Shown here piece by piece: positions 48,375-58,807 of a stretch of 64,000 nt of DNA (the stretch's first letter is position 1; each line of letters starts with the position of its first letter). A model generated the notes under the pieces. It was not told the DNA's origin, did no database searches, and worked only from the letters and a program-made list of their open reading frames with translations. The position numbers and the translations under genes were made by a program. This DNA is from Gemmatimonadota bacterium (GTDB lineage Bacteria; Gemmatimonadota; Gemmatimonadetes; Longimicrobiales; Gaopeijiaceae): positions 1 to 64,000 of the forward strand of contig JAXHMG010000001.1 in the NCBI GenBank assembly GCA_034521595.1, written 5' to 3'.

Positions 48375-48517
48375 GGGCTCCGCACGAAGCTAGACGAGGA
48401 CGGGGTCATGCGGGAGGCGCCCGCGTCTTGTCCTCGTGAAGCCTCTTCGTGAGCGTGAAGGGTGGCCGTGACCTTCCAGCGCTTCAGCACCGCGCTCTCC
48501 CCGTGACCGACTTCCCC

Positions 48518-50107
48518 ATGAACGTCTCACGCCTACTGCGCGACCTCGCACGCCCGGACGCCTACCCGCATCCGGCCCCCGACGTCGAGGTACTACAGAC
48601 CCATATCTCCGTCGTCGCATTGGCAGGAGCCTACGCGTACAAGGTGAAGAAGCCGGTCGACCTCGGCTTCCTGGACTTCAGCACGCTCGAGAAGCGCCTC
48701 TACGACTGCCAGGAGGAGGTGCGCTTGAACCGCCGGCTGGCCGGGGACGTCTACCTTGGCGTGGTGCCCCTCGTCGAGTCCGACGAACACCTGACCGTCG
48801 AGGGCTCGGGTACGGCGGTGGAATACGCCGTCAAGATGGAACGCCTCCCGCCGGATGCGACGCTGCTCGAGCACCTCGAGAACGGCACCCTTGAAGCAGA
48901 CACGCTGCGCACGCTCGCCCACCGTATCGCGGCCTTCCACGCGGAGGCCGCCTCGGGGCCAGACATCGCACGTTACGGGGAATGGAGCGTCGTGGCCGGC
49001 AACGCCCGTGAAAACCTGGCTCAGTCGGTCGATCACGTGGGGTCGTACATCAGCCGGCCCGTTCACGAGCGGCTGCGCGGCGTGCTCGAGGAACGACTGG
49101 ACGCGCTGCGACCGCTGATCGAAGAGCGAGCCGAAGCCGGCGTTCCCCGCGACACCCATGGCGACCTCCACCTCGACCACGTCTACCTCTTCCCCGACCG
49201 TTCCGCCCCACGGGATCTCGTCGTCATCGACTGTATCGAGTTCAACGAACGGTTTCGTTACGCGGATCCGGTCGCGGACATGGCGTTCCTGGTCATGGAC
49301 CTGATCGCGCACGGACGGCGTGACCTGGCCGACGCCTTCGAAAACGCCTACTTCGACGCCATCGACGACGCGGAGGGCCGGGCGCTCGTGCCCTTTTACG
49401 TGTCGTATCGCGCCGCCGTACGGGGAAAAGTCGGTGGATTCATGGCCGAGGAGTCGGAAGTCCCGGCCAGCGAGCGCGAGACCGCCGCGGAGCGGGCACG
49501 GTCGCACTGGCTTCTGGCTCTCTCCGAGATCGAAGAACCGCACCGCCGGCCCTGCCTCGTGCTCGTCGGCGGGCTTCCGGGTACAGGGAAATCCACCCTT
49601 TCCGACGCGTTGGTCCGAGAACAGGGCTTTCAGGTGATCCGCTCGGATGAAGTGCGAAAAGAGCTCGCGGGCTTATCCAGTGGGAGTTCGGCCAAGGCCG
49701 CGTTCGGAGAGGGGATCTACACCGCCGAATGGAACGACCGGACCTACGAAGCGTGCCTCTCGAAAGCCCAGGAAGCGCTGTTCCGGGGTGAGCGCGTCAT
49801 CGTGGACGCATCCTTCCGCGAGGAAGGGCGGAGACGAGCATTCTTGGATGCTGCTCGGAACCTCGGCGTTCGGGCACTCTTCCTGAAGTGCACGGCCGAC
49901 CCCACAACGGTGCGTGAGCGCATACAAAGCCGGCGAGACAGCGCTTCGGACGCGGATTGGGCCATCTATCAACAGGCGGCCCAAGCCTGGGAGACCGAGG
50001 CGCCCGACCCCACCGGCGCGCGGACCCGGGTGGTCCAAGCCGACCAAGCGCTCGAGCAGGCGGTACGCACAGCGACGGCACACCTGAGCGAACACGGTCT
50101 CGCCTGA
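48518..50107 (+). CDS. Bifunctional aminoglycoside-phosphotransferase-like / AAA P-loop kinase protein
   Basis: QTHIS, HGDLHLDH, IDCIEFN; GLPGTGKST. Confidence 0.88.
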   Translation: MNVSRLLRDLARPDAYPHPAPDVEVLQTHISVVALAGAYAYKVKKPVDLGFLDFSTLEKRLYDCQEEVRLNRRLAGDVYLGVVPLVESDEHLTVEGSGTAVEYAVKMERLPPDATLLEHLENGTLEADTLRTLAHRIAAFHAEAASGPDIARYGEWSVVAGNARENLAQSVDHVGSYISRPVHERLRGVLEERLDALRPLIEERAEAGVPRDTHGDLHLDHVYLFPDRSAPRDLVVIDCIEFNERFRYADPVADMAFLVMDLIAHGRRDLADAFENAYFDAIDDAEGRALVPFYVSYRAAVRGKVGGFMAEESEVPASERETAAERARSHWLLALSEIEEPHRRPCLVLVGGLPGTGKSTLSDALVREQGFQVIRSDEVRKELAGLSSGSSAKAAFGEGIYTAEWNDRTYEACLSKAQEALFRGERVIVDASFREEGRRRAFLDAARNLGVRALFLKCTADPTTVRERIQSRRDSASDADWAIYQQAAQAWETEAPDPTGARTRVVQADQALEQAVRTATAHLSEHGLA

Positions 50108-50609: not shown

Positions 50610-50619
50610 GAGAACGCTA

Positions 50620-50702
50620 CGGAGCGCGAGGGACTCGAACCCCCAAGCCCTTTCGGGCGCTCGCTTTCGAGGCGAGTGCATTACCAATTCTGCCAGCGCT
50701 CC
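50620..50702 (-). tRNA. tRNA-Ser(CGA)
   Basis: CTCGC-CT-CGA-AA-GCGAG anticodon arm, long variable arm, GGTTCGAGTCC. Confidence 0.92.
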
Positions 50703-50840
50703 AGATGGCCGGATCCCGGAAGCCCCCCTTGGGAACCACGGGAGAATAGCCTTGCCGGCCGATCGGATGATACCAGGTAATGGGGCGCGGGGTCCAGCCA
50801 CGCTTGATCGCCCGGCCTCAGTGATGCGTGAATGTCAGCG

Positions 50841-51539
50841 CCGCTTACGCGGCACACCAATCGGGGCGCCCGGATGGAGCTCCGGTCGCCTCCCGGCGAT
50901 CCTCGCTCGTCTCGGCGAAACCCCCTCAGACCCGCTGGCGCGGAACTGCCCTCTCGGCGCCTCGGCTCGAACCTCCGGTTCTCTTCCGGACGCTTCACTT
51001 CTCCGGCCGCTTACGCGGCACACCAATCGGGGCGCCCGGATGGAGCTCCGGTCGCCTCCCGGCGATCCTCGCTCGTCTCGGCGAAATCCCCTCAGGCCCG
51101 CTGCCGCGGGACTGCCCGCTCGGCGCCTCGGCTCGAACCTCCGGCTCTCTTCCGGACGCTTCACTTCTCCGGCCGCTTACGCGGCATGCCAATCGGGGCG
51201 CCCGGATGGAGCTCCGGTCGCCTCCCGGCGATCCTCGCTCGTCTCGGCGAAATCCCCTCAGGCCCGCTGCCGCGGGACTACCCGCTCGGCGCCTCGGCTC
51301 GAACCTCCGGCTCTCATCCGGACGCTTCACTTCTCTGGCCGCTTACGCGGCACACCAATCGGGGCGCCCGGATGGAGCTCCGGTCGCCTCCCGGCGATCC
51401 TCGCTCGTCTCGGCGAAATCCCCTCAGGCCCGCTGCCGCGGGACTGCCCGCTCGGCGCCTCGGCTCGAACCTCCGGCTCTCATCCGGACGCTTCACTTCT
51501 CCGGCCGCTTACGCGGCACACCAATCGGGGCGCCCGGAT
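50841..51539 (-). repeat. Tandem array of four 166-bp units plus a partial unit downstream of tRNA-Pro(CGG)
   Basis: TCGGGGCGCCCGGAT recurs at 50861, 51027, 51193, 51359 and 51525 (the last is the tRNA 3' end). Confidence 0.95.
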
Positions 51540-51598
51540 TCGAACCGGGGACCTCTGCGACCCGAACGCAGCGCTCTACCGGACTGAGCCACGCCCCG
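51525..51598 (-). tRNA. tRNA-Pro(CGG)
   Basis: CTGCG-TT-CGG-GT-CGCAG; GGTTCGAATCC. Confidence 0.95.
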
Positions 51599-51663
51599 AA
51601 ACCGGTCTTGTGGGCCCAAGGCGCGTCGGCCGCTGGGCCTGCCTCGTTGTTTGTTCCAGCAAC

Positions 51664-51920
51664 TCGACCCACGCTCCCGATCTGCTGCGCAGATCGCCGC
51701 GTGGGTTCGAATTCATACTTTGACGCTCTTTCAAAACGGACGGGGTGGGATGGGCTCCGCTTCGCTCCGCCGCGTCGCGGGACTGCCCGCTCCGGCGCGC
51801 TCCGCGCGATCACCTTCCCTGGCCCGCTCGGCTCGACCCACGCTCCCGATCTGCTGCGCAGATCGCCGCGTGGGTTCGAATTCATACTTTGACGCTCTTT
51901 CAAAACGGACGGGGTGGGAT
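51664..51920 (-). repeat. One 169-bp unit plus a partial unit downstream of tRNA-Ser(GGA)
   Basis: CGGACGGGGTGGGAT at 51737 and 51906; body shared with the tRNA-Ser(GCT) array. Confidence 0.9.
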
Positions 51921-51989
51921 TCGAACCCACGCGGGCGTGAGCCCACACGATTTCCAATCGTGCGCCTTAAGCCACTCGGCCACCCGTCC
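51906..51989 (-). tRNA. tRNA-Ser(GGA)
   Basis: CACGA-TT-GGA-AA-TCGTG; long variable arm; GGTTCGAATCC. Confidence 0.95.
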
Positions 51990-52089
51990 AGCTCGCTCGG
52001 GACGCGTCCACGAGACGTTTTCGCTAGTCGGTGGATCCGTCCAACTGGGGTCTTCGAACCCAGAACCGTTCTCGAACTGTTTTCCAATT

Positions 52090-52575
52090 CAATCAACTTC
52101 TCGTTCTTTCAGCGAGGAGTATGAGGCCGCTTCGTCGCCGGTCGGGAGACTTGGGCGCGCTCCGCCGCCACTGGGCTCAGCCCACGCTCCGCTCTGCTCG
52201 CAGATCGCCGCGTGGGTTGAATCAACCTTCGTCCTTTCAGCGGAGGAGTGGATGGGCTCCGCTTCGCTCCGCCGCGTCGCGGACTGCCGCTCCGCGCGAT
52301 CACCTTCCCTGGCCCGCTCGGCTCGACCCACGCTCCCGATCTGCTGCGCAGATCGCCGCGTGGGTTCGAATTCATACCTTCTCGTCCTTTCAGCGGAGGG
52401 AGTGGGATGGGCTCCGCTTCGCTCCGCCGCGTCGCGGGACTGCCCGCTCCGGCGCGCTCCGCGCGATCACCTTCCCTGGCCCGCTCGGCTCGACCCACGC
52501 TCCCGATCTGCTGCGCAGATCGCCGCGTGGGTTCGAATTCATACCTTCTCGTCCTTTCAGCGGAGGGAGTGGGAT
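52090..52575 (-). repeat. Three progressively degenerate units (167, about 153, about 128 bp) downstream of tRNA-Ser(GCT)
   Basis: tRNA 3'-end copies at 52561, 52394, 52241 and 52113. Confidence 0.88.
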
Positions 52576-52646
52576 TCGAACCCACGCGGACCTTTCGGTC
52601 CAACGCCTTAGCAGGGCGTCGCCTTAAGCCACTCGGCCATCCCTCC
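52561..52646 (-). tRNA. tRNA-Ser(GCT)
   Basis: ACGCC-CT-GCT-AA-GGCGT; long variable arm; GGTTCGAATCC. Confidence 0.95.
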
Positions 52647-52688
52647 AAAGCAAGGGCCGTCCGGCGTGGACGCTCCCTGGCATCTGAG

Positions 52689-52761
52689 TTGCCCCGCTAG
52701 GGATCGAACCTAGACTCTCCGGAACCAGAATCCGGCGTGTTGCCAATTACACCACGGGGCA
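52689..52761 (-). tRNA. tRNA-Gln(CTG)
   Basis: CCGGA-TT-CTG-GT-TCCGG. Confidence 0.93.
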
Positions 52762-52765
52762 GCAG

Positions 52766-52837
52766 AGCCACCTGTCGGATTTGAACCGACGACCCCGTCA
52801 TTACGAATGACGTGCTCTACCACTGAGCTAAGGTGGC
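52766..52837 (-). tRNA. tRNA-Thr(CGT)
   Basis: CGTCA-TT-CGT-AA-TGACG. Confidence 0.93.
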
Positions 52838-52844
52838 GGAAAAG

Positions 52845-52917
<73 letters not shown>

Positions 52918-52934
52918 AACGACACTCGGAATGA

Positions 52935-53008
52935 TGGGCGCGAGAGGACTCGAACCTCTGACCTCTACGATGTCAACGTAGCGCTCTAACCAACTGAGCT
53001 ACGCGCCC
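52935..53008 (-). tRNA. tRNA-Val(GAC)
   Basis: CTACG-TT-GAC-AT-CGTAG. Confidence 0.93.
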
Positions 53009-53037
53009 GGTCGTACGAACCGAGGATGCTGCTGCTA

Positions 53038-53111
<74 letters not shown>

Positions 53112-53127
53112 GCGATCGACGATGGAA

Positions 53128-53211
53128 TGCCCACGACAGGACTCGAACCTGTACGCCGTTTCCGGCACTGGTCCCTCAAACCAGCCTGTCTACCAATTCC
53201 AGCACGTGGGC
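53128..53211 (-). tRNA. tRNA-Leu(GAG)
   Basis: CTGGT-TT-GAG-GG-ACCAG; long variable arm. Confidence 0.93.
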
Positions 53212-53270
53212 AGAAGCCTGCATATCCTTCATAGGCCGACCGGGCCGCCCACCAACGGACGGCCGGTGCA

Positions 53271-53354
53271 TGCTCGAGGAGGGACTCGAACCCTCACGGG
53301 GTTTCCCCCACAGGATCCTGAATCCTGCGCGTCTACCAATTCCGCCACCCGAGC
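53271..53354 (-). tRNA. tRNA-Leu(CAG)
   Basis: CAGGA-TT-CAG-GA-TCCTG; long variable arm. Confidence 0.93.
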
Positions 53355-53389
53355 GCGGGCCGTCCTGAGCCTGCGAGGCCGTCCGACGA

Positions 53390-53462
<73 letters not shown>

Positions 53463-53529
53463 TCACGCATCACCTGGTGAAGCCGTCATTCTCGGTGCAT
53501 CGACGACTTCGCTGTCAAATAACGAGGAG

Positions 53530-53603
53530 CGGGGCTGACGAGACTCGAACTCGCGACCTCCGGTGTGACAGACCGGCACTCTAACCGACTGAGCTACAGC
53601 CCC
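53530..53603 (-). tRNA. tRNA-Asp(GTC)
   Basis: CCGGT-CT-GTC-AC-ACCGG. Confidence 0.93.
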
Positions 53604-53658
53604 TGATTGTGCTACCCACGGTGCTCGGCACCTTCTCCGTACGGCACCGCGACTTCTA

Positions 53659-53730
53659 TGCCCCGACGGGGAATTGAACCCCGATTACCACCTTGAAAGA
53701 GTGGTGTCCTAGCCATTAGACGACCGGGGC
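53659..53730 (-). tRNA. tRNA-Glu(TTC)
   Basis: CCACT-CT-TTC-AA-GGTGG. Confidence 0.93.
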
Positions 53731-53744
53731 GTACCTGGCGTTGA

Positions 53745-53817
53745 CAGGCCCGGAGGGACTCGAACCCCCAACCGCCGGTTTTGGAGACCGGTGCTCTACC
53801 AATTGAGCTACGGACCT
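53745..53817 (-). tRNA. tRNA-Trp(CCA)
   Basis: CCGGT-CT-CCA-AA-ACCGG. Confidence 0.93.
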
Positions 53818-53855
53818 CTAGTCTGTCGTGTCGCCCGGCCCCTGGGTATGGATCA

Positions 53856-53928
53856 TGGCCAGGGACGGAATCGAACCGCCGACACCACGATTTTCAGTCG
53901 TGTGCTCTACCAACTGAGCTACCTGGCC
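53856..53928 (-). tRNA. tRNA-Phe(GAA)
   Basis: CACGA-CT-GAA-AA-TCGTG. Confidence 0.93.
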
Positions 53929-54134
53929 CTCGACATAAAAAACCGCCCGAACCATAGCGGCGCGGACGGGATGCTTCAGGTAAGGCCGGCGACTTACGCG
54001 GCCTGCCCCCCCGCCCGCGCAAGCGGGCTCCACGTATCGGACACCGTCAAGAGCGTAGACTGCTTCGGCAAGACGCGGGTCTCCATCGTCCTAACGTGGC
54101 GAGCGCCGCCCTCCGGACGGCGCTCTTCGAACAA

Positions 54135-54208
<74 letters not shown>

Positions 54209-54388
54209 ACAGGGCTGAGAATCTATACCCTGTCGGCGCAAGCGGTCAACCCACGGCGGTGCGGCCCCCTCCTCGGGCCGTCGCTGACGGCCACCTCCCA
54301 GACTGTGCGGACCGTGTGAGGCGTGGTGTCGGAGGTCCGGAAGAGTGCATGTTTGGAGGGATCTTCCACCGACTTCCACAGGTCACTC

Positions 54389-55627
54389 GTGCTCGACGCA
54401 AACTTCATCGACCCACTGATCGCCCTCGGGCTCGGGCTCCTCGTGGGACTACAGAAGGAACGGACGTCGTCCCCTCTCGCGGGGCTGAAGACGTTCGGCC
54501 TGGCCAGCCTCTTCGGGGCGGTAGCCGCATTGGTCTCGATCGAGGTGGGCGGCTGGATTCTCCCCACCGGCCTGATCGCCGTGGTCGGGGTCATGGCCAT
54601 CGGCAACGCCATTCAGATTCGCGAGCACCGTGCCACGCCCGGACAGACCACGGAGGTCGCGATCCTGGTCATGTACCTGGTAGGCGCGTTGACCGTCGTA
54701 GGCACGACCGCCGTCGCCATCGTCCTCGGGGGAGCCGTCGCCGTCCTCCTGCATCTCCGGGAGGAGCTCCGGGGATTGGTAACCCGGATGAGCGACCGCG
54801 ACGTCCGCGCGATCATGCAGTTCGTGCTCGTTTCCCTCGTCATCCTGCCTGTCCTACCGGACCGGACGTTCGGTCCGTTCGGGGTCCTGAACCCCTACAA
54901 CATCTGGTTGATGGTCGTGCTGATCGTCGGGATCAACCTCGCGGGATACGCAGCCTTCCGATGGCTCAGCAGCCGGAGCGGCACGGCAGTGGCGGGGCTG
55001 CTCGGCGGAGTAGTGTCGAGCACGGCCACAGCCTTCGCATACGCCAGGAACGTCCGCTCGGGCGATCTATCCGCCGGGACCGGGGCAGTGATCATCTGGA
55101 TGGCCTCGAGCATCGTCTACATCCGCATCCTGATCGAGATCGGAGCGGTCGCGCCAAGGTTCCTACCGACCGCTGTGGGCCCGATGCTCGTGATGCTCGG
55201 CATGTTCGCGGCCATCACCGCTCTCACTTGGAACAAGGTGGCGGACGCCGGAGCCAACCCACTCGAGCTCAAGAACCCGACGCACATGAACGCGGCCATC
55301 GTCTTCGCCGCACTCTATGCCGGGGTCCTGCTGGCCGTCGCCGCCGCCGAAAGGTACCTGGGCGACGCCGGACTCTACGCTACGGCCGTGCTCTCCGGAC
55401 TCACGAACATCGACGCCATCACCCTCTCGACTGCACGCCTGGTCGCATCGGAGCGCGTGGACGAATCCGTCGGCTGGAGGCTCATCGTCGCGGCGAGCCT
55501 CTCGAACATGGTGTTCAAGCTGGGGATCGCACGGGTCCTCGGCGGTCGTGCGCTGGGGCGGAAGCTCGGTGGCTTGACCGCCATCGGAGTCGCGGCCGGC
55601 CTTGCCCTCATCCTACTCTGGCGGTGA
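54389..55627 (+). CDS. MgtC/SapB-family membrane protein with DUF4010 domain
   Basis: ALGLGLLVGLQKE..AGLKTF, GQTTE, GGVVSSTATA, SGLTNIDAITLS. Confidence 0.85.
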   Translation: MLDANFIDPLIALGLGLLVGLQKERTSSPLAGLKTFGLASLFGAVAALVSIEVGGWILPTGLIAVVGVMAIGNAIQIREHRATPGQTTEVAILVMYLVGALTVVGTTAVAIVLGGAVAVLLHLREELRGLVTRMSDRDVRAIMQFVLVSLVILPVLPDRTFGPFGVLNPYNIWLMVVLIVGINLAGYAAFRWLSSRSGTAVAGLLGGVVSSTATAFAYARNVRSGDLSAGTGAVIIWMASSIVYIRILIEIGAVAPRFLPTAVGPMLVMLGMFAAITALTWNKVADAGANPLELKNPTHMNAAIVFAALYAGVLLAVAAAERYLGDAGLYATAVLSGLTNIDAITLSTARLVASERVDESVGWRLIVAASLSNMVFKLGIARVLGGRALGRKLGGLTAIGVAAGLALILLWR

Positions 55628-55763
55628 CTCGCGGCGCCCGCCGAGGGCGTGACCAGGCGCGACCCGTTGCGCGCGGTGCGGGGACGAGCCACGCTTTCAG
55701 GGGCCGGGCGGACGAGCCCGAGCCAGACGAGCAACGAGCTGAAGATAGTGGAGGATCCATACC

Positions 55764-56108
55764 ATGACCGACCTCGCCGAACGACATTGTGAAGCGTGCA
55801 AACCCGATTCCCCGACGGTGAGCCCCGAGGAGCGTGAAGAATTTCACGCTCAGGTGCCGGACTGGGACATCGTGGAGATCGGCGGCGTCCCGCAGCTGCA
55901 ACGTGCGTTCACGGTCCCCGACTTCGCGGAAGCCCTGGCCCTGTCCGATGAAGTCGGCGCCTTGGCGGAGGAAGAAGGCCACCATCCGGCCATCCTCACG
56001 GAATACGGGAAGGTCACCGTGCGGTGGTGGACGCACACCATCGGCGGGCTGCACAAGAACGACTTCATCATGGCGGCCAAGACCGACGAGCTCTTCGAGG
56101 ATCTGTAA
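55764..56108 (+). CDS. phhB: Pterin-4-alpha-carbinolamine dehydratase
   Basis: [31 protein letters not shown]. Confidence 0.9.
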
Positions 56109-56170
56109 GCGGACGTCACCGGCCGGGTCCGAAACAGGCAACCCGGAGGCTCCCTACCACCGACATCGGG

Positions 56171-57472
56171 TCAAGATCGCGGACGAAGCTCGCTGACGAC
56201 CTGGATGCCGCGAGCTACTTCGGGGATCACGCCCCTCTGCTCGTAAACCGGTAGCACCTGGGCCCGCAGCGCTCCGATCCGGCGCACGAACCAGGCCGCG
56301 AAGACCAGACAACCCATCCCACCCAAGGCCACGGCCGCCGGTGCTCCGATCCGACTCGCTATCGCTCCGCCCCCCAGGCTCCCGATCGGCATCATCCCCA
56401 TGAACGCCATCGTGTAGAGACTCATCACGCGACCGCGCATCTCCTCGCCGACCAGCGTCTGGACGACCGTGTTGATCGAAGCGGTCGTGAGCATCAGGCC
56501 AAAGCCACCCAGGGCGAGCATCGCACAAGAGAGGAGCAGGCTGCGGGACACCGAAAAGACCAGAAGCGTGGTTCCGAACAGCGCCAGAGCCCCCGCGATG
56601 ACCCGCCCGAGTCCCATCACCGTATCCCTCGAGGCGAGGTAGAGCGCGCCGGCCAGAGCGCCGGCACCCGACGACGCCGTCAGCAACCCGAGGGTGGTCG
56701 CATCCCCGTCGAGGATATCTCGGGCGAAGACGGGGAAGAGCACGACGTAGGGGATCCCCAGAAGCGATACACCCGCCAGCACGACGAGGAGGTCGCGGAT
56801 GGGCGCGAAGCCGAACGCGTAACCGAATCCCTCCCGGATGTTCTGAAGCAGGGCGCCGGCTCGCAGTCCTCGCTCAGCCGGTAGGCGCATCATGGCGAGG
56901 GCACCGAGGATCCCCACGAAGCTGACGGCGTTGAGCACGAAGACCGGCCCCTCGCCCCACCACCCGATGAGGATCCCGCCGAGCGCGGGTCCAATCAGCC
57001 GAGCCGCGTTGAACATCGAGGAGTTGAGGGCGATCGCGTTAGGAAGATCCGCCTGACCCTCCACCAGCTTCACCAGAAGCGCCTGCCGAGCCGGTATATC
57101 AACGCCGTTGATGACGCCCACCACGACCGCCAGCACCACAAGGTGCCAGACCTGCACCAGCCCGCCAATAACGAGCGCCGCCAGAACCACGGCCTGTACC
57201 ATGGCCAAGGTCTGAGCCACGGCGACCATCCGATAGCGGCTCCACCGGTCCGCGAGCGCTCCGGCGAACGGGGCCATCAAGAGCGAGGGGAATTGGCTCG
57301 AAAACCCGATCACCCCGAGCAGGAACGCGGAATCGGTGAGCCGATAAACGAGCCAACTCATCGCGACCTGTTGCATCCAGGTGCCGACGAGCGAGATACC
57401 CTGGCCCACGAAGAACAGCCGCAGATTGCGGTGGCGGAGCGCCCTCAGCGCCAAACGGATACGATTCGACAC
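56171..57472 (-). CDS. MFS transporter
   Basis: ALRHRNLRLFFVGQGISLVGTWMQ, GALADRWSR, MRGRVMSLY. Confidence 0.9.
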   Translation of the reverse strand: MSNRIRLALRALRHRNLRLFFVGQGISLVGTWMQQVAMSWLVYRLTDSAFLLGVIGFSSQFPSLLMAPFAGALADRWSRYRMVAVAQTLAMVQAVVLAALVIGGLVQVWHLVVLAVVVGVINGVDIPARQALLVKLVEGQADLPNAIALNSSMFNAARLIGPALGGILIGWWGEGPVFVLNAVSFVGILGALAMMRLPAERGLRAGALLQNIREGFGYAFGFAPIRDLLVVLAGVSLLGIPYVVLFPVFARDILDGDATTLGLLTASSGAGALAGALYLASRDTVMGLGRVIAGALALFGTTLLVFSVSRSLLLSCAMLALGGFGLMLTTASINTVVQTLVGEEMRGRVMSLYTMAFMGMMPIGSLGGGAIASRIGAPAAVALGGMGCLVFAAWFVRRIGALRAQVLPVYEQRGVIPEVARGIQVVSELRPRS

Positions 57473-57579
57473 GTCCGACGCTAACGGGTCGGGGGATGAG
57501 AAGGGAGTGGAGGGTGTGATGCCCCCTCCCTCTGACGCTCGAGCCCGACGCCGGCGGCACCCGCTCCGTCGCGCGAGCC

Positions 57580-57684
57580 ATGCACCCGGATGAGGACGGG
57601 CGCAAACAGCACGAGGAGATGGGCTTCCTCGAAGGATGGGGCACGTGCCTGGACCAACTCGTCGAAATGGTCAGGCGGTGGTGA
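57580..57684 (+). pseudogene. C-terminal remnant of an SRPBCC/AHSA1-family gene
   Basis: HPDEDGRKQHEEMGFLEGWGTCLDQLVE with no upstream domain. Confidence 0.55.
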
Positions 57685-57740
57685 CATCGGCCGCCCAGGC
57701 GCTTCCCGCCACCGCCCCGAGTCTATAGTTTCACCGTCCA

Positions 57741-57814
57741 CGGGACGTGGCGCAGTCCGGTAGCGCACTGCAATGGGGTTGCAGGGGTCGCCGGTTCGAA
57801 TCCGGCCGTCCCGA
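57741..57814 (+). tRNA. tRNA-Pro(GGG)
   Basis: CTGCA-AT-GGG-GT-TGCAG; GGTTCGAATCC. Confidence 0.95.
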
Positions 57815-58736
57815 TGGAGGCCTCACAACCAGACGGTTGTGAGGCCTCTTTTGTTTTCGGCCTCCATCGGGGCGGCCGGATTCGTGGACTCGCCAACAGG
57901 CGAGGACACGGCGCGACCCACGTCGCGCCAGAACCGTAGGTTCGAGACGAGCGGCCACATCAGTCGCTCCCGACCCACAAGCCCCACCGCGAGTCGAGCG
58001 AAGGGCGGGCGCGCCCCCGGCGCGCTCGACCGTAGCTCCATCCGGCCGTCCCGATGGAGGCCTCACAAGCCGACCGACAGGCTCTTCGCTCTCGGCCTCC
58101 ATCGGGACGGCCGGACGGATCCCTTGGTCGTCGATCGCCGGGAAGCACATGGGCCGACGACAGCTCGCGCTGTCGCGGAACGACCTCATCCGGCCGGCCG
58201 GATTCGTGGACTCGCCGACCGGCGAGGACACGGCGCGACCCACGTCGCGCCAGAACCGTAGGTTCGAGACGAGCGGCCAACAACGGTCGCCTCCCGACCC
58301 GACAAGCTCCACCGCGAGTCGAGCGAAGGGCGGGCGCGCCCCCGGCGCGCTCGACCGTAGCTCAATCCGGCCGTCCCATGGAGGCCTCACAACCAGACGG
58401 TTGTGAGGCCTCTTCTGTTTTCGGCCTCCATCGGGACGGCCGGATGGACTCCCTCTGGTCGTCGATCCGCCGGGGAAGCACATGGGCCGACGACAGCTCG
58501 CGCTGTCGCGGAACGACCTTATCCGGCCGGCCGGATTCGCAGACTCGCCAACAGGCGAGGATGCGTGGGGCGACAACGTCGTCCCACCGAACCGTAGGTT
58601 CGAGACGAGCGGCCAACATCGGTCCCTCTCGACCCGCAAGCCCCACCGCGAGTCGAGCGAAGGGCGGGCGCGCCCCCAGCGCGCTCGACCGTAGCTCCAT
58701 CCGGCCGTCCCGATCGAGGCCTCACAACCAGACGGT
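57800..58736 (+). repeat. Three units (240, 325, 334 bp) plus a partial unit downstream of tRNA-Pro(GGG)
   Basis: ATCCGGCCGTCCC(G)A at 57800, 58040, 58365 and 58699. Confidence 0.92.
57817..57857 (+). terminator. Rho-independent terminator after tRNA-Pro(GGG), duplicated in the repeat units
   Basis: 14-bp stem GAGGCCTCACAACC/GGTTGTGAGGCCTC followed by TTTTGTTTT. Confidence 0.75.
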
Positions 58737-58807
58737 CGACGCACACCCGTCCGCACGATAGCGTGTGAAGAAGCACCGACTTTTCCCCACCACACCGCGA
58801 GCCGACC

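Follow-up and report, generated by a model that had tools for sequence, protein, structure and literature searches.

A structured core in the T-loop of tRNA genes accompanies repeated tRNA tails in the Gaopeijiaceae

In E. coli, the tyrT gene is followed by 178-bp repeats (rtT RNA), units that each end in a copy of the tRNA 3′ end, vary in copy number and are co-transcribed with the tRNA. Genes for tRNA and tmRNA are also usual targets of integrases, with tyrosine recombinases leaving a 6–8-bp overlap and serine recombinases a dinucleotide. Non-canonical tRNA introns of archaea and algae interrupt the T-loop at position 58/59 or 59/60. Finally, in the IS608 architecture, a guide is paired with the cleavage site. 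Here we analyze repeats found behind tRNA genes in a 64,000-nt stretch of DNA (the window) from a Gemmatimonadota bacterium of the family Gaopeijiaceae.

Tandem units behind four tRNA genes

A preliminary description of the window reported that four tRNA genes (Pro-CGG, Ser-GGA, Ser-GCT and Pro-GGG) are followed by tandem units, each ending in the last 15 nt of its own tRNA. This is indeed the case. Each gene is followed by one to four such units, the unit tails start at T-loop position A59, and their sequences agree with the earlier reading. ARAGORN called 18 tRNA genes in the window and 49 genome-wide. The features are as follows.

50619..54209, minus strand: 17-gene tRNA operon, holding the Pro-CGG, Ser-GGA and Ser-GCT arrays
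54249-54220, minus strand: promoter-like site of the operon
50796-50767, minus strand: second promoter-like site, just upstream of tRNA-Ser(CGA)
50609-50574, minus strand: strong terminator-like hairpin of the operon
51524..51599, minus strand: intact tRNA-Pro(CGG) (ARAGORN), T-loop TTCGAATCC, heading the 166-bp array
50840..51523, minus strand: Pro-CGG array (Tandem Repeats Finder), four 166-bp units and, last, tail and trailer again (36 nt)
51374..51464, minus strand: Pro-CGG core copy 1, type A, 91 nt
51208-51298, 51042-51132 and 50876-50966, minus strand: other Pro-CGG core copies
51905..51990, minus strand: intact tRNA-Ser(GGA) (ARAGORN)
51666..51904, minus strand: Ser-GGA unit, in the order trailer, left arm, core, tail copy, second trailer and left arm
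51752-51832, minus strand: Ser-GGA core, type B
51737-51751, minus strand: Ser-GGA tail copy
51666-51736, minus strand: Ser-GGA second trailer and left arm, coreless
52560..52646, minus strand: intact tRNA-Ser(GCT) (ARAGORN)
52000..52559, minus strand: Ser-GCT array, several units, increasingly decayed with distance
52409-52489 and 52394-52408, minus strand: type B core and tail of Ser-GCT unit 1
52254-52322 and 52241-52253, minus strand: core and tail of Ser-GCT unit 2, with small deletions
57741..57814, plus strand: intact tRNA-Pro(GGG) (ARAGORN)
57815..58740, plus strand: Pro-GGG array, 322-bp period, 2.7 copies (Tandem Repeats Finder)
near 57867-57883, 58102-58116 and 58431-58446: inverted tRNA-tail copies in the Pro-GGG array
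57946-58039, 58268-58364 and 58604-58698, plus strand: Pro-GGG cores
58040-58054, 58365-58378 and 58699-58713, plus strand: Pro-GGG tail copies

Each Pro-CGG unit is made up of a trailer hairpin (21 nt), a left arm of 39 nt that ends in CCGGAGGTTCGA, a core of 91 nt and the tail ATCCGGGCGCCCCGA (15 nt), while Pro-GGG units consist of a terminator-like hairpin, an inverted tRNA-tail copy, a left arm (...GAACCGTAGGTTCGA), the core and a tail copy. Tandem Repeats Finder described the first array as 166 bp × 4.2 (50840-51539, 97% matches) and the second as 322 bp × 2.7 (57865-58740, 89% matches). Exact copies of the 15-nt tail 3′ of the tRNA number four at Pro-CGG and one at Ser-GGA; Ser-GCT has one exact copy and decayed ones, and Pro-GGG has two exact copies and one with a deletion. 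Inverted copies of the T-arm or tRNA tail are found at Ser-GGA (where the left arm holds the 16-nt T-arm copy ATTCGAACCCACGCGG), Ser-GCT and Pro-GGG. A stretch of 143 nt is identical between the Ser-GGA and Ser-GCT units, which could be gene conversion between neighbors. The decayed Ser-GCT units are bypassed in a contig of run X1, where 52087 is joined to 52365. A single unit folds no better than shuffles (z = –1.42). The arrays had been said to hold no integrase or real ORF, and this holds up: none of the five longest ORFs over the arrays has a Pfam match, and the 10 ORFs scanned at 48.4–61.5 kb contain no recombinase domain.

Downstream tail copies accompany 8 of the 49 tRNAs called genome-wide. 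All eight have T-loop TTCGAATCC, which 12 tRNAs carry, and none is among the other 37 (hypergeometric ∼1e-6, our own arithmetic), a link that is more than chance. Together with the tmRNA gene ssrA, these eight tRNAs (four of them outside the window) make nine occupied loci, which have one common core and unrelated trailers. At Arg-CCG, type A and type B cores sit in adjacent units with the same trailer, and we count these neighbors as support for independent hits on one site. The order of the arrays in the tRNA operon is the same in relatives.

Ends, target site and fold of the core

The motifs noted earlier as common to the arrays are real and form parts of a longer core, conserved, structured and ORF-less, so that units of different tRNAs are alike well beyond tRNA-derived sequence. 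In the window's genome, this core is a discrete sequence of 69–97 nt (5′ GCCGAG...AGCTC[C/A] 3′), always found between ...TTCGA and ATCC..., i.e. between A58 and A59 of the tRNA T-loop, and in one orientation. With model R1, Pro-CGG cores score 102.5–105.7 bits and Pro-GGG cores 56.6–57.7 bits. At E < 0.001, a profile of the core recovered nothing but the type A seed copies (14) and one copy beside ssrA; the three type B seed copies scored E 0.02–0.36, and all matches away from tRNA had E values of at least 0.76. Among 117 distinct copies from 74 sources, TTCGA lies to the left of 87 and ATCC to the right of 107. At the loci examined, the cognate intact tRNA is upstream on the same strand in 49 cases, downstream in one and on the opposite strand in none, and 59 loci of the same set are without any called cognate tRNA. 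The junctions TTCGA/GCCGAG and AGCTC[C/A]/ATCC have at most 1 nt in common, and the core shows neither terminal inverted repeats nor a target-site duplication. When checked against Rfam, as had been proposed, the core matched no known family: no covariance model reached its gathering threshold within the units, those of rtT, tRNA-like RNAs and small ribozymes included. Sub-threshold matches (mir-1298 at 28.9 bits versus 70, mir-632, mir-3179) are put down to chance, and the strong matches over the arrays are the tRNAs themselves.

These data bear on the idea that the units are a plain tyrT-like tandem duplication of tail and trailer, made by unequal crossing-over with no element involved. The units do lie head to tail, are 89–97% alike within an array and differ in copy number between relatives. 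However, a core common to the nine loci and present in dozens of other genomes contradicts plain duplication, as do its occurrence as a single insert inside complete tRNAs and the lack of an rtT or other match at the Rfam gathering score. We regard this explanation as scarcely credible.

The core has a conserved fold, made up of three helices with strong covariation. Paired cells amount to 91.0%, compared to 74.0% in shuffles, with 0 of 500 shuffles reaching the observed value and slid controls giving 27–57%. Double changes are seen in 17 of the 18 pairs. The P3 hairpin is 98.4% paired; P4, in which an internal GAGC pairs with the terminal GCTC, is 99.6% paired and has double changes in all four pairs. 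G·U outnumbers A·C by 20 to 8 on the tRNA-sense strand, the strand on which the core structure lies. Within the genus, the orthologous Pro-CGG site retains the conserved blocks, and its helix P1 shows a compensatory swap. Units of one array differ mostly in the variable P2 region.

Distribution, empty sites and split tRNA genes

The element is restricted to one lineage. Among Gaopeijiaceae genomes, 22 of 41 carry it (21 of 40 genera sampled), and it was found in none of 134 genomes that represent the phylum's other families. Across 185,579 species genomes there were 58 pattern matches, all but 3 titled Gemmatimonadota, Gemmatimonadales, Gemmatimonadaceae or Longimicrobiales. Copies per genome range from 0 to 27. 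Comparison of orthologous tRNA loci, suggested in the preliminary description, revealed the core at some and empty sites at others, in related genera, with array copy number differing between relatives. In a syntenic array, 4–60-nt spacers follow Ser-GGA and Pro-CGG in three genomes (G009, G011, G017), and another (G024) has one variant unit in its syntenic tRNA array. For 19 of the 40 genera no core was found, among them some with complete genomes that share this tRNA array.

In related genomes, the core (79–88 nt) interrupts full-length tRNA copies, with no second copy of the tail. With the core removed in silico, 6 of 10 tested copies became tRNAs that ARAGORN can call. Three of the six belong to genome G041, in an accessory array with 17 tRNAs called by ARAGORN; this genome also carries a main tRNA array with an intact tRNA. 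Every split copy examined is redundant, with an intact isoacceptor either next to it (in L045, L055 and L059) or, for G041, in the main array, and many have truncated or decayed halves. Off-target insertions occur in an anticodon arm (CCTGA/ATGGGG) and inside a 285-bp MITE of G041 (CTCGA/AATGG), and the GCCGAG 5′ end stays constant when the left target TTCGA becomes CCTGA or CTCGA. The MITE itself is bounded by 18-bp TIRs and flanked by TA/CTAG. Across genomes, cores group in part by the identity of their tRNA; no near-identical pair at unrelated sites was found as proof of recent jumping.

Could the core be a bacterial T-loop intron, cut out and the halves joined to give functional tRNAs? Position 58/59 is also used by non-canonical introns, taking out the core leaves a full cloverleaf in the split genes of G041, G044 and the genome of L055, and the fold is conserved on the RNA strand. 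But the split copies have intact paralogues, their halves are often decayed, and 4 of 10 are not callable after removal. No bulge-helix-bulge is apparent, because P4 pairs the 3′ end with the internal GAGC and not across the junctions, and self-splicing of the group I or group II kind would need a much larger RNA than the core. An intron is thus very unlikely, and the internal pairing of the 3′ end and the intact paralogues count against the archaeal/eukaryal type.

The 15-nt tail had been read earlier as the identity block of an integrase crossover, a reading that gives way before a fixed-end insert at A58/A59 that splits complete tRNAs elsewhere. More broadly, the units might be CIME-like mini att cassettes that lost their body, with attL–attR stacked by repeated integration and the core corresponding to the P arm of attP. 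The duplicated block does run from the T-loop past the end of the tRNA (36 nt at Pro-CGG, ∼21 nt in G024), both tRNA and tmRNA genes are occupied, tandem arrays and empty sites fit accretion, and the window's genome has four tyrosine recombinase (Phage_integrase) matches, although none is in the window and no integrase gene lies beside any array there. However, at least six cases are simple 79–88-nt inserts into a complete tRNA whose positions 59–73 occur just once, the left junction TTCGA/GCCGAG is common to all copies, and the junctions share neither a 6–8-bp overlap (tyrosine) nor a dinucleotide (serine). The helices covary, keeping pairing but not sequence, which double-stranded protein-binding sites do not need. 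An origin as integrase att scars fits poorly and is unlikely; two copies of an identity block holding a 6–8-bp crossover region, expected of a CIME-like cassette, do not flank the core in these simple inserts.

Alternatively, the core could be a host-selected structured RNA (for processing, as a decoy or for protein binding), co-transcribed with tRNAs, inherited vertically, copied between tRNA loci only by recombination and immobile. The conserved blocks and P1 swap at Pro-CGG would also fit such an RNA. So would the fold's compensatory changes in general, the G·U excess on the sense strand, the concentration of within-array differences in P2, and the fact that three arrays lie in the tRNA operon, downstream of a promoter-like site and ahead of a terminator. 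Contigs from relatives' RNA libraries touch the core, a weak point since such libraries can contain DNA. On the other side stand the 19 genera in which the core was not found, the range of 0 to 27 copies, the splitting of complete tRNA genes, the copies in an anticodon arm and a MITE, the decay of distal copies, and homology of 5–7 nt per side, too short for ordinary recombination. We consider a host RNA improbable. The preliminary description had also raised structured RNAs released by tRNA 3′ processing, with which the strand of the structure and the operon setting of three arrays would be compatible.

We lean towards the view that the repeats represent a site-specific, non-autonomous, structured insertion element, kept only in redundant tRNA copies. 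This element would insert one way between A58 and A59 (TTCGA/ATCC) and rarely at other ..GA/AT.. sites. Insertion would split the gene, and hence copies would persist only in redundant targets, be they partial or whole tandem duplicates by an intact tRNA, as in the window, or, in a related genome, accessory tRNA arrays. What looks like a regenerated 15-nt tail would then be positions 59–73, the right half of a split copy, and the left arm before the core its decaying 5′ part. Unequal recombination between units may then lengthen or shorten the arrays, which would decay towards their distal end. The active species is presumably single-stranded, either sense-strand DNA or RNA, and duplication may precede insertion or be selected with it. 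That the element moves is something we infer. One caveat is that most left arms carry inverted T-arm copies, of which the insertion model gives no account, just as it gives none of the origin of the spare tRNA copy. The earlier proposal of a miniature non-autonomous family stands in part: the ORF-less core, the lack of an Rfam match, presence/absence at loci, patchy occurrence among genera and changes in copy number speak for it, whereas a crossover-made tail does not stand.

Mobilizing enzymes and comparison with known systems

The window's genome (93% complete) has no match to Y1_Tnp, RVT_1, the TnpB zinc-ribbon domain or Resolvase. Y1_Tnp (PF01797) was likewise without matches in five further carriers (G041–G045) and was detected in control genomes. 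Among the loci read, none held an autonomous element carrying the core. IS110 and the element show no co-occurrence: Transposase_20 is found in 13 of 22 carriers versus 9 of 19 non-carriers, and one genome with 12–16 core copies (G003) has none. Complementarity of the variable region to its own flanks (4.38/4.49 nt) is similar to that to others (4.43/4.47 nt). Given the lack of recombinase co-occurrence and of excess complementarity to own flanks, an IS110/IS1111 bridge-RNA element was rejected. A DDE-transposon MITE was set aside for want of terminal inverted repeats and a target-site duplication, and a retroelement (group II intron, retron or SINE-like) because the core spans 69–97 nt and the window's genome has no match to reverse transcriptase PF00078.

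The core family accounts for the repeated tRNA tails in the window and points to a mode of DNA movement outside the enzymes searched for. As in E. coli tyrT, tandem units lie directly 3′ of the tRNA and each ends in a copy of the tRNA 3′ end. However, tyrT is one locus with no core common to other tRNAs, whereas here eight tRNAs and ssrA are occupied, in a family with carriers in 21 of 40 genera, and the element has a fixed T-loop insertion point, single inserts in complete tRNAs and no rtT match. With integrative elements of tRNA/tmRNA genes and CIMEs it shares a displaced 3′ fragment that begins in the T-loop, stacked copies, and presence in some relatives but not in others; it differs in its size of 69–97 nt, its simple inserts and covarying hairpins, and in that no linked integrase was found. 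Archaeal and red-algal non-canonical introns and permuted or split tRNA genes also involve an intervening sequence in the T-loop, but here the host is bacterial, no bulge-helix-bulge is apparent and interrupted copies are redundant or decayed.

Like PATEs and REP-RAYT elements, the element is small, ORF-less and strand-specific, lacks a target duplication and inserts 3′ of a short fixed sequence. Its subterminal hairpins are similar too, the terminal GCTC, reminiscent of a cleavage site, pairing with a guide-like internal GAGC that immediately precedes the 3′ hairpin, as expected of the IS200/IS605 type. A Y1 HUH transposase was found in none of the six carrier genomes, and on this ground an IS200/IS605-type PATE or REP-RAYT was rejected. 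Unlike those elements, the ones described here also have a fixed right flank, AT[C/G][C/G], keep the 5′ end GCCGAG regardless of changes in the left target, and are confined to T-loop-like sites.

Repeated tRNA tails and the sites they occupy

ARAGORN called 18 tRNA genes in the window. On the tRNA-sense strand, units 3′ of Pro-CGG, Ser-GGA, Ser-GCT and Pro-GGG each end by repeating the final 15 nt of the tRNA exactly, beginning with ATCC at T-loop position A59. A unit consists of a trailer, a left arm, a structured core and the tail copy.

tRNA genes, arrays and cores in the window, with the ninth occupied locus of the genome
50619-54209, minus strand, 17-gene tRNA array (ARAGORN)
57741-57814, plus strand, tRNA-Pro(GGG) (ARAGORN)
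50840-51539, 166-bp repeat, 4.2 copies, 97% matches (Tandem Repeats Finder)
57865-58740, 322-bp repeat, 2.7 copies, 89% (Tandem Repeats Finder)
51374-51464, 51208-51298, 51042-51132 and 50876-50966, Pro-CGG cores
51752-51832, Ser-GGA core
52409-52489 and 52254-52322, Ser-GCT cores
57946-58039, 58268-58364 and 58604-58698, Pro-GGG cores
C3:1414042-1414394 (contig C3), tmRNA gene, with a variant core and a repeat of its final 17 nt downstream

Exact tail copies number four at Pro-CGG, one each at Ser-GGA and Ser-GCT, and two at Pro-GGG; decayed copies come after the exact ones at Ser-GCT and Pro-GGG. With four tRNAs each carrying units that end in an exact 15-nt tail, the preliminary description, which had reported these copies, was right in all details that we checked by ARAGORN, tandem-repeat analysis and sequence reading. 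Units within one array are 89-97% alike, and the distal units at Ser-GCT become progressively more decayed. Left arms contain inverted copies of the T-arm/tail (16 nt at both Ser loci, 23 nt at Pro-GGG); at Pro-CGG there is no inverted copy of 10 nt or more. In a comparison with Logan contigs, which break within arrays such that uncovered stretches are uninformative, a contig of sequencing run X1, whose second piece shows 21 differences, bridges 52087 to 52365 and hence lacks the decayed Ser-GCT units. Contigs from RNA libraries derive from relatives and cannot show transcription.

The 17-gene array apparently holds the genome's sole ARAGORN-called copies of many anticodons (e.g. Trp-CCA, Phe-GAA, Asp-GTC, Glu-TTC, Val-GAC, Arg-ACG, Leu-CAG/GAG), and its gene order is kept in five or more genera of the family. 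For tRNA-Thr(CGT) and tRNA-Leu(CAG) (52765-52837 and 53271-53354), the genome contains each gene's final 15 nt twice, with no second copy within 3 kb downstream of either gene. Just outside the tRNA region lies a 552-aa ORF (48449-50107, plus strand) whose C-terminal part matches AAA_33, with weaker matches to Zeta_toxin/KTI12-type P-loop kinase domains.

The window opens a 117.6-kb contig, of which it makes up the first 64 kb; the assembly has three contigs and totals 3.49 Mb. Genome-wide, own-tail copies lie downstream of 8 of the 49 ARAGORN tRNA calls, those outside the window being Cys-GCA, Pro-TGG, Ser-TGA and Arg-CCG on C3. All eight occupied tRNAs are among the 12 with T-loop TTCGAATCC, and none of the 37 calls with other T-loops has an own-tail copy. 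The tmRNA (tag ANNNMALAA; locus L077, G000:C3:1413831-1414394) sits directly upstream of tRNA-Ser(TGA). Its core variant has the junctions TTTGA|ACCGAG and CAGCG|GAC, and the tmRNA 3′ end is also present there in inverted form.

Anatomy and fold of the core

We lined up the nine loci. Trailers differ from locus to locus, those at Arg-CCG and Pro-GGG containing the gene's own terminator hairpin, and one conserved module, the core, is found in every unit. Its 5′ part runs GCCGAG, the 4-bp helix P1, which closes the variable hairpin region P2, and CGAGAC; its 3′ part runs GAGC, GAGGAT, a 4-6-bp hairpin (P3), ACCG[C/G]A and a terminal GCTC[C/A]. In these units, GGTTCGA always precedes the core and ATCC plus the tRNA tail always follows, which places the core exactly between A58 and A59 of the T-loop. 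The tail that appears regenerated is the 3′ half of the interrupted loop. The Ser left arm (GCGTGGGT-CGA) resembles the 5′ part of the same tRNA in decayed form, and the Pro and Cys left arm is a conserved hairpin, GAACC-GNA-GGTTC. In the two Ser arrays of the window the core is of a shorter kind (type B) with unchanged layout. Neighbouring units at Arg-CCG share a trailer and have different core types, which argues for multiple hits at one place. In a tree, cores this short and noisy do not separate vertical descent from jumping.

A core profile searched against this genome at E < 0.001 recovered the 14 type A seed copies plus one copy beside ssrA and nothing else; three type B Ser copies scored E 0.02-0.36, and every match away from tRNA had E >= 0.76. 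No Rfam family matches the units, and none of the five longest ORFs across the arrays has a Pfam match.

From 60 aligned cores we built a covariance model with four helices (R1), which gathered 129 matches, 117 of them distinct, across the window and 73 loci. In this alignment, which was fitted to R1 and is therefore biased toward structure, standard pairs fill 91.0% of cells versus 74.0% after column shuffling (a value as high as the observed one came up in 0 of 500 shuffles), both-sided changes occur in 17 of 18 pairs, and slid controls are 27-57% paired. The paired share is 94.6% for P1, 98.4% for P3 and 99.6% for P4; it is just 66.6% for P2, where the alignment is poor. Double changes in P4 (GAGC/GCTC to GGGC/GCCC, GACT/GGTC, GATC/GATC and TACC/GGTG) are seen too in raw MAFFT rows and in directly read loci, and RNAalifold on the MAFFT alignment recovers part of the fold only. 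G·U outnumbers A·C by 20 to 8 in P1, P3 and P4, indicating that the pairing strand is the tRNA-sense strand, as RNA or single-stranded DNA. The folding energy of a single unit does not differ significantly from shuffles (z = –1.42), so the structural case is one of covariation rather than energy.

A fold of this kind could mean that the core has a function as a host RNA. Three of the arrays do lie within a tRNA operon flanked by a promoter-like site on one side and a strong terminator on the other, and the conserved blocks persist at the orthologous Pro-CGG site of three congeners, where P1 shows a compensatory swap. Even so, we regard a host function as unlikely. Nor does the fold appear to act as a guide RNA for the target: matched against its own flanks, P2 shows neither more complementarity nor more similarity than against the flanks of other tRNA classes.

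Empty sites, split genes and distribution

The array Trp-Glu-Asp-Ala-Leu-Leu-Arg-Val-Ala-Thr-Gln-Ser-Ser-Pro-Ser is syntenic in four related genera, with Phe in front in two of the genomes (G017 and G024). Spacers after Ser-GGA and Pro-CGG in G009, G011 and G017 measure 4-112 nt and lack a core; those after Ser-GCT measure 37-211 nt. The fourth genome, G024, has a single variant unit 3′ of Ser-GGA. R1 finds nothing or just one weak match in each of the four. Genomes of the window's own genus have units at the same tRNAs in differing copy numbers.

Several genomes have full-length tRNA copies that are split by the core. Locus L045 has two tandem tRNA-Pro(CGG) copies, each core-split and ending prematurely at position 69, with an intact copy downstream of both, and L055 has one split copy of this kind. 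G041 has an accessory array, with 17 tRNAs called by ARAGORN, in which the core divides three complete ones, Asn-GTT and two Pro-CGG. Deleting the TTCGA-to-ATCC interval in silico restored an ARAGORN-callable tRNA in 6 of 10 tested cases; the remaining four are fragments. The G041 array is tightly packed (L022 3994-5900; G041:C1, about 1,035,800-1,037,900), its tRNAs have lower Rfam scores than those of the main array, and its calls include an Ile-AAT and one with an undetermined two-base anticodon.

Of the 117 distinct copies, 87 are preceded by TTCGA; on the right, 107 have ATCC and 3 have ATGG. An intact cognate tRNA lies upstream on the same strand in 49 cases, downstream in one and on the opposite strand in none; for 59 copies no cognate was called, often at a locus or contig end or beside a decayed tail. 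Other targets include CCTGA|ATGGGG, at the stem-loop boundary of the tRNA-Pro(GGG) anticodon arm (L059, L061), and CTCGA|AATGG, inside a 285-bp MITE with terminal inverted repeats that then occupies at least 17 sites in G041. The MITE (loci L079-L101) has 18-bp terminal inverted repeats (GTGTGGTGTCCCAGAAGT), TA/CTAG flanks and a nested shortened core; its ends may be like those of IS630-type elements. Two loci of identical sequence (L015 1190-1313, minus strand, and L069) contain a head-to-tail core-core junction, ...GCAGTTCA|ACCGAG..., in which the 3′ half of one core abuts the start of a near-full core with no T-loop flanks between.

To gauge distribution, we searched one genome each of 185,579 species with a degenerate pattern (3′ domain plus ATCC). 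All but three of the 58 matching stretches bear the titles of Gemmatimonadota, Gemmatimonadales, Gemmatimonadaceae or Longimicrobiales MAGs. The phylum-wide spread suggested by these titles was dropped after the R1 scans, which show a patchy presence in one family. Under stricter filters (E <= 1e-5), R1 found two carriers among 151 genomes from across the phylum, both in the window's family (Gaopeijiaceae), and none among 134 genomes of other families. Sampling the family at one genome per genus yielded carriers in 22 of 41 genomes (21 of 40 genera), and five further genomes reached via the pattern hold 27, 11, 16, 13 and 12 matches. These data indicate an element that is lineage-restricted, patchy and multi-copy. 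Within the published material that our literature search reached, we found no earlier description of the core.

A proposed insertion element and its possible enzyme

The simplest account is that the core is a site-specific insertion element, because it has fixed ends and a fixed target, one orientation, empty sites, a patchy distribution and simple inserts in complete genes. Insertion breaks the tRNA gene, so the core is seen solely where a spare copy exists. The repeat unit would then be a spare tRNA copy minus its decaying 5′ part, and the regenerated tail would correspond to positions 59-73 of the split spare. The intact gene stands before the split copies in the window and after them in L045, L055 and L059; either crossover of a duplication would be expected to give these two positions. 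Subsequently, arrays may change through unequal recombination.

The preliminary description had proposed, as one of two readings, a non-autonomous element family, and had pointed to integrases that cross over in tRNA T-loops and duplicate the 3′ end. This is partly supported: the element family stands, whereas a crossover-made tail conflicts with inserts that have a single tail and with the lack of a shared crossover segment. We think it improbable that the units are integrase scars: tail duplication and tRNA/tmRNA targets are what an integrase would leave, but single-tail insertions, junctions without a shared crossover segment and freely covarying helices are not. A truncated tyrosine-recombinase frame (188 aa) adjoins tRNA-Leu(TAA) at G000:C3:1489787-1490239 (L004).

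Several other enzymes were considered for mobilisation of the insertion element. Retro-mobility, TnpB and serine recombinases were set aside, as the window's genome (93% complete) has no match to RVT_1 or to either of the latter two. IS110 is present in that genome; over 41 genomes, it occurs in 13 of 22 carriers versus 9 of 19 non-carriers, showing no association. The lone IS110-family gene there (G000:C3:1511000-1512200, L102; Transposase_20, E 1e-20) is apparently read in two frames.

Single-strand transposition of the IS200/IS605 type fits the architecture best. It would account for the absence of a duplication at the insert, the strand-specific fold and the terminal GCTC that pairs with an internal GAGC beside a subterminal hairpin. 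Known elements such as IS608 use pairs between a guide and a cleavage site, which the GCTC/GAGC pair of the core resembles. However, the right flank of the core is fixed too, its 5′ end stays the same when the left target changes, and a Y1 transposase was found in none of six carrier genomes (Y1_Tnp, 0/6), the result on which mobilisation by IS200/IS605 or RAYT enzymes was rejected.

As a tentative proposal, we put forward that tRNA-gene parasites include a class so far undescribed, with the core as its first member. In such a class, a ~90-nt single-stranded fold might present its own 3′ cleavage site through covarying GAGC/GCTC guide pairing, home to the A58|A59 bond of the T-loop and be moved by an enzyme outside current family libraries, either an HUH-like nuclease that has diverged or an activity that cuts and joins at the RNA level. 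R1 provides a covariation-supported RNA/ssDNA motif for the enzyme hunt, and the 21 carrier versus 19 non-carrier genera offer a clean contrast for finding it. The finding also explains a recurrent annotation puzzle, the tRNA 3′ ends that 'echo' in tandem, and the pseudo-tRNA fragments, behind tRNA genes, and shows that essential single-copy tRNA genes can bear decaying shadow copies.

tRNA genes are classic landing sites of large integrase-borne islands. The core is probably tRNA-targeting mobile DNA as well, and discovery of its enzyme might show it to form a class of its own. It would represent a new way to target these genes, in which a folded, gene-less element of ~90 nt enters one exact T-loop bond in hosts without a recognisable transposase, and thus a compact, naturally site-specific insertion system.
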